Shown here piece by piece: positions 3 through 1,337 of a stretch of DNA of 1,337 nucleotides. The position numbers were made by a program, and so were the translations under genes. Origin of the DNA: Naegleria gruberi (Eukaryota); assembly GCA_000004985.1 (NCBI GenBank), contig GG739444.1; one strand, 5' to 3'. The notes beneath the pieces were generated by a model. It had not been told where the DNA came from. It was given only the letters and a program-made list of their open reading frames with translations, and did no database searches. Positions within the stretch are counted from its first letter, which is position 1. The number at the start of each line of letters is the position of its first letter.

Positions 3-260
3 AATTCCCTACCTAATGCACAAGAAAATTTTTCTGTTAAATTTAATGAAGTACTTGCACACTACGATGAATTGATAAGGAATTACTCTCCGATTAATCC
101 AAATGGAAAAGTTGATAATTCAAACAACGATTACACAACATCATCCAGAAATACATCTGGTGAATATAATACAAATGATCAATTACCTAGTAAAAAGGAT
201 ATTGTATTTAATGGAAAAAGTGATAATATCTTCACAGTGATGATTTCATTTCACTACTAG
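3..260 (+). CDS. Frame-0 segment of the kinase-like gene: 5'-partial low-complexity (N/S/T-rich) region upstream of the kinase domain. The track's 72..260 TTG-start ORF is the tail of this longer open frame.
   Basis: The frame containing position 72 has no stop from position 3 to TAG at 258-260. It translates NSLPNAQENFSVKFNEVLAHYDELIRNYSPINPNGKVDNSNNDYTTSSRNTSGEYNTNDQLPSKKDIVFNGKSDNIFTVMISFHY*. There is no ATG at position 72 (the codon is TTG). The other two frames hit stops within the first 40 nt. Confidence 0.5.
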   Translation, partial: NSLPNAQENFSVKFNEVLAHYDELIRNYSPINPNGKVDNSNNDYTTSSRNTSGEYNTNDQLPSKKDIVFNGKSDNIFTVMISFHY

Positions 261-421
261 GACATGGAGGTGAAGGTGCTGTATTCAAAGTATTTCACAA
301 AAGCAAATCCTTAAGGGCTTTAAAATTAAAATATGACCCAGAGGAATCAGAGGAAACAATTAACTTATTGAAAAGAAATGATATTGAAGGAAAGATCAAA
401 TGTTTTGATTGGAATGGTTGA
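227..421 (+). CDS. Frame-2 segment: kinase subdomains I-IV (Gly-rich ATP-binding loop, A-x-K, alphaC region).
   Basis: LGHGGEGAVFKV at 257..292 matches the h-x-LG-x-G-x-x-G-x-V P-loop. RALKLK (A-L-K) lies about 15 residues downstream. Then comes the EETINLLKR alphaC-like stretch. The segment is bounded by TAA at 224-226 and TGA at 419-421. It was missed by the ORF track because it lacks an in-frame start codon. Confidence 0.55.
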   Translation, partial: YLHSDDFISLLGHGGEGAVFKVFHKSKSLRALKLKYDPEESEETINLLKRNDIEGKIKCFDWNG

Positions 422-557
422 TAATCACCTTTATACAGTTATGGAACTTGGAGAGGAATCATTATCAGATTATATTAAAAGGAATGATGAAATTTATCGC
501 ATTGTGAGCAAGCTTTTCATCATGATAGTCTACTTCAGAAGACATGTATTACAATAA
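372..557 (+). CDS. Frame-0 segment: kinase subdomain IV-V hinge and alphaE region, then premature TAA.
   Basis: HLYTVMELGEESLSDYIKR at 426..482 resembles the PKA-type '[20 protein letters not shown]' hinge. IVSKLFIMIVYFRRH resembles the alphaE helix that precedes the HRD catalytic loop. The stop TAA at 555-557 falls where H-R-D-L-K-x-x-N would be expected. Confidence 0.5.
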   Translation, partial: KEMILKERSNVLIGMVDNHLYTVMELGEESLSDYIKRNDEIYRIVSKLFIMIVYFRRHVLQ

Positions 558-788: not shown

Positions 789-1337
789 TCAGTAATCTTC
801 AAATCCTAATTTTCGTTTCCATTCTCGAATATTCTTAAAGTATGGATTGAATTTTGAGGTCAATTCATCAATGCTATCATTGTGTTTCACATAGCAGAAT
901 TCAAAACATTCCAATCTTCCCAAATCTCCATCTCTATTCAAAGCACTTTGTAAAATTTTCTTGATATTTGAAACATGAATAGAATTTGATCCTTGTAATA
1001 AATCATTCCTGTGAAGTGAGAGAATTTTCAAATTTCTCATTGGAACAGAGAGTAGGGTAGAGGTTATTTCTGCAGAGGGACCTGTTCTGGTAACATTCAG
1101 ATATTCCAATTGATTTCCAATACTTTTTAGAACTAGTTTGCAAGTTTCTTCATCGACAAATGTTGAGATGGAGAGACCTTTCAATTTTTTGAAATGTTGC
1201 AAGTTTGAAACGGCCCTACTATTGAATGAACTGGCAGCGTAACCATCCTCTTTAAAATTCAAATTTAGAAATATTGATTGTTCTTTGCATTTTTCATTGG
1301 AAAGAATATCTGAAATTATTTCACTGTCTATTGCAGA
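789..1337 (-). CDS. Leucine-rich-repeat protein (cysteine-containing / RNI-like LRR flavour), C-terminal part. The ORF is 5'-partial and continues beyond the window. Stop codon TGA (complement of 789-791).
   Basis: The track ORF 789..1262 begins at a TTG (complement of 1260-1262), not ATG. The same frame stays open through 1263..1337 (...SAIDSEIISDILSNEKCKEQSIFLNL-NFKEDGY...). LRR-type segments: NLKILSLHRNDLL (about 996-1034), LEYLNVTRTG, KGLSISTFVDEETCKLVLKSI and ILQSALNRDGDLGRLECFEFCYV fit the L-x-x-L-x-L-x-x-N/C-x-L pattern with interspersed Cys. The basic C-terminal tail is FNPYFKNIREWKRKLGFEDY. The LRR assignment rests on pattern recognition only and has not been checked against a profile. 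Confidence 0.55.
   Translation of the reverse strand, partial: SAIDSEIISDILSNEKCKEQSIFLNLNFKEDGYAASSFNSRAVSNLQHFKKLKGLSISTFVDEETCKLVLKSIGNQLEYLNVTRTGPSAEITSTLLSVPMRNLKILSLHRNDLLQGSNSIHVSNIKKILQSALNRDGDLGRLECFEFCYVKHNDSIDELTSKFNPYFKNIREWKRKLGFEDY

Follow-up and report, generated by a model that had tools for sequence, protein, structure and literature searches.

A probable rearranged pseudogene of the DUF4116-kinase family in Naegleria gruberi

The window, which is the whole stretch of Naegleria gruberi DNA analysed here, comprises 1337 nucleotides and has a GC content of 31.7%. It contains a kinase-like region on the plus strand, an open frame upstream of this region, and the 3' part of an F-box gene on the opposite strand (Table 1). 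Frame +3 is open from the 5' edge of the window to a TAG at 258-260. Frame +2 is open between two TGA TAA pairs, from nt 227 after the pair at 221-226 up to the pair at 419-424. A second open run in frame +3 extends from nt 372, after a TGA at 369-371, to a TAA at 555-557. A run of five A residues is located at 215-219. An earlier, sequence-only reading of this stretch had listed these frame limits, stops and the A5 run (calling frame +3 its frame 0), and every coordinate holds on re-reading of the sequence. Database searches with the window's own ORFs found no record, and a search of the window against Rfam gave no match.

Table 1. Features of the window, with nucleotide coordinates and the comparison on which each row is based.
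Feature	Position (nt)	Strand	Counterpart or basis
Upstream open frame, 85 codons to TAG 258-260, N/S/T-rich 'linker'	3-226	+ (frame +3)	Translation; runs off the 5' edge of the window
Junction 1 (frame +3 to +2)	219-254	+	Frame change within 227-241, by tblastn alignments
Piece A: subdomains I-IV	227/242-409	+ (frame +2)	P0014 residues 163-223, 52/56 identical
Junction 2 (frame +2 to +3)	410	+	Lone T between GAT (Asp, 407-409) and GGA ATG (Gly-Met, 411-416)
Piece B: beta5, hinge, start of alphaD (GMVDNHLYTVMELGEESLSDYIKRNDEIYR)	411-500	+ (frame +3)	P0014 residues 226-256, 22/29 identical
Piece C: probable inverted activation-segment/APE remnant, YMSSEVDYHDEKLAHN	501-548	-	P0014 residues 330-356, 11-residue gap, 12/16 identical
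Piece D: end of kinase domain, subdomain XI (ITIIQREASKRLNCY; ITIIQREASKRLNCYYTHEIFFTHVLE)	548-628	+ (frame +2)	P0014 residues 451-476, 13/26 identical
Piece E: family-specific C-terminal tail (YLKGEITEYKNIEKGIGVWKEIKP*RSYSKVVE; YLKGEI...RSYSKVVE)	621-719	+ (frame +3)	P0014 residues 477-510, 19/33 identical
F-box/LRR protein gene, 3' 549 nt	789-1337	-	Convergent with the pseudogene and outside it; stop codon TGA 789-791

The F-box ORF encodes 182 residues and is free of stops from the 3' edge of the window. Its product is 97% identical to P0001, which is encoded by an ENA metagenome contig and shares a 90% cluster with XP_002680512.1, annotated as 'FBOX domain-containing protein [Naegleria gruberi strain NEG-M]'. 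Of its 182 positions, 5 differ from the reference protein and 6 from P0001. This places the window in Naegleria, in a further gruberi-like strain or at a paralogous locus. The F-box part of the window is also 98% identical at the DNA level to a metagenome contig (L001), and this similarity ends exactly at the F-box stop codon. The reference copy of the F-box gene is located on a 695-kb scaffold, whereas the closest kinase relatives discussed below are on a scaffold of 573 kb. Naegleria uses the standard genetic code and has GT-AG introns. Ciliate or other alternative codes were considered, as were very small introns like those of Stentor or Paramecium. Both were ruled out by the Naegleria neighbour gene, and no GT..AG pair keeps the conserved residues. 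Frameshifting at stop codons in the style of Euplotes was likewise discarded, as both the organism and the sequence context are wrong.

The open frame at the 5' edge (3-226) matches neither Pfam nor the profile of the kinase family described below. Its local alignment to the 110 pre-kinase residues of 12 paralogues gave p = 0.23 in comparison with shuffled sequences. Neither DUF4116 repeats nor a helical pre-kinase region is found within nt 3-226, and these 226 nt are all that the window holds upstream of the kinase-like region. An open frame of 85 codons (3-260) is long for DNA of 32% GC, which counts against the pseudogene reading given below.

The kinase N-lobe is encoded by nt 227-500 and is divided between frames +2 and +3. 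The frame +2 translation is YLHSDDFISLLGHGGEGAVFKVFHKSKSLRALKLKYDPEESEETINLLKRNDIEGKIKCFDWNG, and the continuation in frame +3 is GMVDNHLYTVMELGEESLSDYIKRNDEIYRIVSKLFIMIVYFRRHVLQ. The Gly-rich loop, GHGGEG-AVFKV, and the ALKLK sequence that carries the VAIK lysine are both in frame +2, and beta5 and the hinge (LYTVMELGEESLSDYI) are in frame +3. The kinase motifs are thus split over frames, as the sequence-only reading had proposed. GHGGEGAV and ALKLK align with GYGGEGVA and ALKLK of the intact protein P0014, so the GxGxxG pattern and the beta3 lysine are both present. Piece A extends to beta4 (IKCFD) and has a shortened alphaC region; compared with paralogues, it has in-frame losses of one and four codons. 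Piece B has an in-frame loss of two codons. Overall, protein-level comparison with the paralogues indicates small in-frame losses of 1, 1, 4 and 2 codons.

When the segments are stitched into a single protein of 184 amino acids, residues 84-165 align with positions 5-96 of the Pfam Pkinase profile (PF00069). This collinear alignment had been predicted, yet it scores only 17.2 bits (E = 0.0037), which is below the Pfam gathering score of 31.7 bits. The intact relatives P0003 and P0014 score 84-88 bits over profile positions 1-196. Kinases in PDB, foremost TTK, match the stitched protein with E about 0.002. Far stronger similarity was found within Naegleria. A phmmer search of 1.84 billion representative sequences returned six matches, of which the best is P0003 (E = 4.4e-33, 85% identity), and a tblastn search of the window with P0003 gave E = 5e-32, summed over two N-lobe HSPs. 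A word-indexed protein search with the stitched protein gave no match; this is a false negative of the pre-filter, as P0003 is in the same database. A scan of JGI metagenomes revealed relatives at 25% identity only.

A frameshift-aware comparison with intact paralogues, which had been suggested as a check on the initial reading, combined tblastn searches with 12 paralogues, a family profile run against all six frames, and alignment of each segment to P0014. All three show collinear homology that switches frames. The 12-member profile matches frame +2 with E = 1.3e-34 and frame +3 with E = 3.9e-18. Its matches are in order, at profile positions 477-548 (piece A, 84 bits), 540-570 (piece B, 40.9 bits), 751-789 (piece D, 20 bits, E = 6e-9) and 789-824 (piece E, E = 7e-7), as expected of descent from this family. 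The kinase signal is well above chance, but only in comparison with the Naegleria gruberi proteins that combine DUF4116 and Pkinase domains.

Intact members of this parent family have a protein kinase domain together with DUF4116 repeats, a helical middle region and a coiled-coil tail. The closest to the window copy are P0014 and P0003, with about 85% identity over the N-lobe. P0003 is named 'serine-threonine kinase [Naegleria gruberi]' and contains 11 DUF4116 repeats. P0009, P0010, P0011 and P0014 share the 573-kb scaffold, and more distant paralogues are found on other scaffolds. Further members are P0012, P0015, P0016, P0004, P0005, P0006 and P0013. The catalytic loop of the intact proteins is atypical, with the form HRDLDPxN, and DF(E/D) occurs instead of DFG. 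In the literature library that was searched, no paper on the Naegleria DUF4116-kinase family or on the present relic was found.

The window copy shares with these paralogues a collinear N-lobe, subdomain XI and the tail that in the family reads FLKGEI...SYSQL. The family sequences DFISLLGxGGEG, KSLRALKLKYDPEESEE, DIEGKIKCFD, VMELGEESLS and MIQRDxSKRLNCY are also present in it. Unlike the paralogues, the window copy has no continuous ORF and is interrupted by four frame changes and in-frame stops. It also lacks core codons that the paralogues possess, with an apparent inverted remnant in their place, and it lies beside an F-box gene.

Human TTK/Mps1 (PDB 5eh0 and 3cek) is the top match among solved structures, and its GxGG..KVF(K/Q)V, AxK and YxVME hinge sequences are in register with the window copy. 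However, the score is about 21 bits, which is generic for kinase N-lobes, compared with 129 bits to the Naegleria family. The idea of a Mps1/TTK relic was dropped once the Naegleria family was found, as Mps1 orthologues are not the closest relatives. The sequence 'IVFNGK', at one point taken for a Mps1 motif preceding beta1, was also dropped because it sits in the non-homologous upstream frame.

At the first frame junction, tblastn aligns YLHSD-DFISLLG in frame +2 with YF(K/S)NDYDFIS(V/I)LG of the family. The family match starts at nt 227, and the Tyr codon of the family sequence (K/S)(N/S)DYDFIS is absent. This shift would reflect a small insertion or duplication at 227-241, with a net effect of -1. 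An imperfect direct repeat, AGTGAT..TTCAC, can be read by eye at this junction, with copies at 219-235 and 236-254, and taking out 17 nt would put AAA AGT GAT and GAT TTC ATT in one frame. Tandem Repeats Finder reported no repeat at this junction. An internal duplication that would connect the hinge with the copies of an 18-nt repeat, located at 102, 210 and 408, was considered and set aside as a curiosity (p = 0.27 at the protein level; p = 0.003-0.2 at the DNA level, depending on the pair).

The counterpart of the second junction in P0015 and P0016 is FDCGMI(E/H)(R/N)HLYSVMELGEE, and the matches in frame +3 start from nt 411. By comparison with these proteins, the shift would correspond to a 2-nt deletion in a TGY Cys codon at nt 410. 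Because only 1 nt separates the homologous codons at this junction, an intron there is impossible. This bears on the possibility of a working gene in which splicing of very short introns, or programmed ribosomal frameshifting, connects the frames, and whose product is kinase-like but consists only of an N-lobe. N. gruberi genes do contain introns, and the F-box gene on L001 shifts frame between its exons. Moreover, the N-lobe shifts by -1 and then by +1, which formally allows a product that ends at TAA 555-557, and conservation of the N-lobe far exceeds that of the tail. However, the only GT..AG candidates of the required length class, at 204-220, 220-260, 402-438 and 417-438, each remove conserved residues (DFISLLG or NHLYT) or encounter TGA TAA. 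A slippery heptamer is absent from both junctions, as is any stop-codon context known to promote recoding, and a protein composed of an N-lobe followed by antisense-derived residues would be unprecedented in the family. A spliced or recoded gene is therefore extremely unlikely. The sequence-only reading had regarded the two shifts as a compensating pair. They do not restore one ORF: the frame changes twice more, at about 500-548 and within about 592-628, and a TAA interrupts the frame at 693-695.

The same reading held that the TAA cuts the kinase just before its catalytic loop. Instead, about 180 codons are gone after nt 500, corresponding to alphaE, the HRD catalytic loop, the DFG equivalent and alphaF to alphaH, and the C-terminus and tail persist at 548-719. 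Residues 257-329 of P0014, which include alphaE, HRDLDPQN at 289 and DFE at 308, have no counterpart in any frame, so neither HRDxxxxN nor a DFG-like sequence is found. Residues 357-450 (alphaF to alphaH) have no counterpart in the window. The hinge and alphaE had both been assigned to the second open run in frame +3. The hinge is indeed there, but alphaE is not: IVSKLFIMIVYFRRHVLQ, which is encoded by 501-557 in this frame, has a local alignment score of 19 against the alphaD/alphaE region of the family, whereas shuffled sequences average 22. In frame +3, the match to the family profile ends at about nt 503.

The 48 nt at 501-548 are probably what is left of the activation segment, now inverted and lying within a complex deletion. 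On the minus strand they match the family sequence YMSPEVSHDNY..(11 aa)..DEKLAHN, with YMSSEV encoded at 548-531. When all six frames of these 48 nt were compared with the 194 missing residues, the minus-strand score was 42 (shuffle p = 3e-4). Each half is significant in its own right (501-524, p = 5e-5; 525-548, p = 0.008), and the two share one frame and follow each other in the correct order. Several paralogues match this piece by tblastn in frame -1, each with E of about 0.07-0.14. The family profile search did not report an inverted match at 501-548. An in-line activation segment ending in APE (SPE in the family) is absent, and the segment is seen solely as this probable minus-strand remnant. 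The catalytic core would then have been lost in a complex deletion, with 48 nt of the activation segment put back in inverted orientation. A deletion accompanied by an inverted piece is a typical signature of break repair or template switching.

Alternately, the pseudogene might have formed by a simple deletion without an inversion, in which case forward homology in frame +2 resumes at about 506-527 and the minus-strand match arose by chance. The forward reading aligns EQAFHHDSLLQKTC with (D/N)xxFGVNxLLIRCI of the family. It is ungapped and contiguous with the clear match to subdomain XI in piece D, and the reading of 506-547 beats shuffles in a fixed register, with p about 0.02 both over 14 residues and over the last 7. 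The family profile passes through this region with moderate posterior probability, and one deletion is a simpler event. However, the minus-strand match is far less likely to occur by chance, given that the p values of its two halves were obtained with a free choice among six frames. The shared frame and correct order of these halves, and an exact 7-mer on the minus strand, DEKLAHN, that is common to most paralogues, also argue against coincidence. We consider the simple deletion unlikely, and the forward +2 reading remains a weakly supported rival, particularly for 525-548.

Downstream of the inverted remnant that we favour, the end of the kinase domain and the family-specific tail are recognizable on the plus strand. 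The in-frame TAA at 693-695 interrupts piece E at a position where every paralogue carries Leu. A second stop, TAG 723-725, lies past the tail, and homology fades beyond nt 719. The C-terminal remnant is 55% identical to P0014, compared with 86% for the N-lobe. In intact paralogues at a similar N-lobe distance the two regions are nearly equal, for example 80% and 77% in P0012. The option of a young pseudogene, raised in the sequence-only reading, thus suits the N-lobe and not the C-terminal remnant.

The unequal decay suggests that constraint on the out-of-frame C-terminal part was lifted sooner, or that gene conversion with the paralogue cluster renewed the N-lobe. A mosaic origin from two paralogues is a third possibility. 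Another conceivable course is stepwise, in which loss of the core left an ORF containing only the N-lobe. This ORF would have remained for a long time under purifying selection, or been renewed repeatedly through gene conversion by the cluster on the 573-kb scaffold, and the two N-lobe frameshifts would be recent. Such a history would account for the difference between 86% and 55% identity, and the N-lobe fragment might then have served as a nucleotide-binding piece or as a scaffold or decoy. We regard the stepwise course as improbable.

The plus-strand region 219-719 is, with a probability of close to 0.9, a non-functional, rearranged pseudogene of the N. gruberi DUF4116-kinase family. What survives, in the original order and successively in frames +2, +3, +2 and +3, is the N-lobe (subdomains I-V), then subdomain XI and the beginning of the tail. 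Four frame changes, the stops in and past the tail and the missing core codons give it the structure of a duplicated, non-processed pseudogene. HRD, DF(G/E) and an in-line APE are all absent and the Pfam score is under the threshold; the window copy cannot make a kinase. It is most likely idle and drifting. We infer the sizes of the indels and the inversion from protein-level comparison with the paralogues.

The lesions are numerous and of mixed kinds, which favours a pseudogene over both an artefact and recoding. The sequence-only reading had also preferred real decay over sequencing error, and the four frame changes, none of which is at a homopolymer, bear this out. An intact kinase gene could nonetheless have been corrupted by sequencing or assembly errors if the window comes from a short-read or metagenome assembly. 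Indels would then account for the shifts of frame, and a join that is collapsed or chimeric might account for the missing core. The window is short, the related contig L001 is itself a metagenome assembly, and the abrupt end of their similarity at the F-box stop could mark a misjoin in either of them. The N-lobe is also well conserved, as seen in piece A (52 of 56 residues identical to P0014). However, there are too many independent lesions of differing kinds, including the in-frame deletions of 1, 1, 4 and 2 codons, the TAA that replaces a conserved Leu, the loss of the core with a 48-nt piece between its flanks, and 45% amino acid divergence in the tail. Short-read errors are seldom indels of 2 nt or 17 nt, which are the sizes considered at the two junctions. 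Accordingly, an intact gene hidden by such errors is very unlikely. Part of the large-scale structure, namely the deletion with its inversion and the end of similarity to L001 at the F-box stop, could in principle result from misassembly.

The preferred reading, a duplicated and rearranged pseudogene, resembles other duplicated protist-kinase pseudogenes in several respects. It belongs to a multi-copy, partly clustered family, carries frameshifts, stops and an internal deletion, and is intergenic. It differs from them in the small inverted fragment within the deletion and in the markedly unequal decay of its N- and C-terminal parts, but these features are too ordinary to define a new class. 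The window copy is an unannotated, decayed member of an annotated family, and it reflects ordinary genome decay and not a new kind of gene.

Recognition of the pseudogene is useful for annotation, as a gene caller could split this locus into short, spurious 'kinase-like' ORFs, two or three in number (72-260 and 378-557). Alternatively, it could introduce introns that do not exist and so build a false gene model. The locus records turnover, by birth, rearrangement and death, in a lineage-specific expansion of DUF4116-kinases in Naegleria. The pseudogene itself opens no new question, but the intact DUF4116-kinase family may merit a study of its own.

An 85-codon open frame lies at the 5' end of the window and runs past its edge. 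By a rough base-composition estimate, a frame of this length would arise by chance with a probability of about 1e-3 at 32% GC. Neither Pfam nor the kinase family contains a homologue of its translation, and the frame may form the 3' end of a separate, unrecognised coding exon that is joined to the kinase relic.

The motif AATGGAAAAGTTGATAAT, which is 18 nucleotides long, occurs three times in the window, with all copies in the same frame, at spacings of 108 and 198 nucleotides (each divisible by 3), and with 83-89% identity. Frame +3 translations of the copies are NGKVDN, NGKSDN and IGMVDN. The second copy adjoins the first frameshift junction (+3 to +2, within 227-241), and the third crosses the second junction (+2 to +3, at nucleotide 410). 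Support from shuffling is marginal: the pair formed by copies 1 and 2 reaches p = 0.003, and the other pairs give p = 0.05-0.2.

Features of the window and of metagenome contig L001
Feature	Sequence	Position	Strand or frame
85-codon open frame	window	3-260	frame +3
18-nt motif, copy 1	window	102-119	
18-nt motif, copy 2	window	210-227	
18-nt motif, copy 3	window	408-425	
tRNA-Thr gene (anticodon AGT)	L001	36-109	minus
ORF beyond the F-box gene	L001	1817-2083	same strand

The F-box gene that neighbours the relic (789-1337, minus strand) has a counterpart on L001 (1061-1609), and the two coding sequences share 98% DNA identity throughout. Seven codons differ, six non-synonymously and one synonymously, and the differences are concentrated in window positions 1209-1276; this replacement ratio, although drawn from small counts, is unusually high given the overall identity. 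The identity vanishes exactly at the F-box stop codon (window 789, L001 1609), beyond which the sequences are unrelated. No kinase remnant is present past this point on L001, which has an ORF where the window has the remnant. A rearrangement could have its breakpoint here, the two loci could be paralogous, or one of the two assemblies could contain a misjoin. Upstream of its F-box gene, L001 carries a tRNA-Thr gene that was detected by Rfam (53.9 bits) and ARAGORN.

Word-indexed homology search returned no match for the stitched, frame-joined kinase translation, although the intact paralogue P0003, with which it has exact words of 10-17 residues in common, is present in the same database. An empty result from this search should not be taken to mean that homologues are absent.

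No paper on the intact N. gruberi family that includes P0003 and P0014 was found in a literature search. In the gene model of the paralogue P0011, the middle region runs directly into VLGYGGEG, and P0004 has an additional, canonical kinase domain (HRDLKPQN). The catalytic loop of the P0003/P0014 family reads HRDLDP(Q/K)N, with Asp at the position where Ser/Thr kinases have Lys, and DFE or DFD replaces DFG. Judged by its sequences, the family is an atypical kinase.
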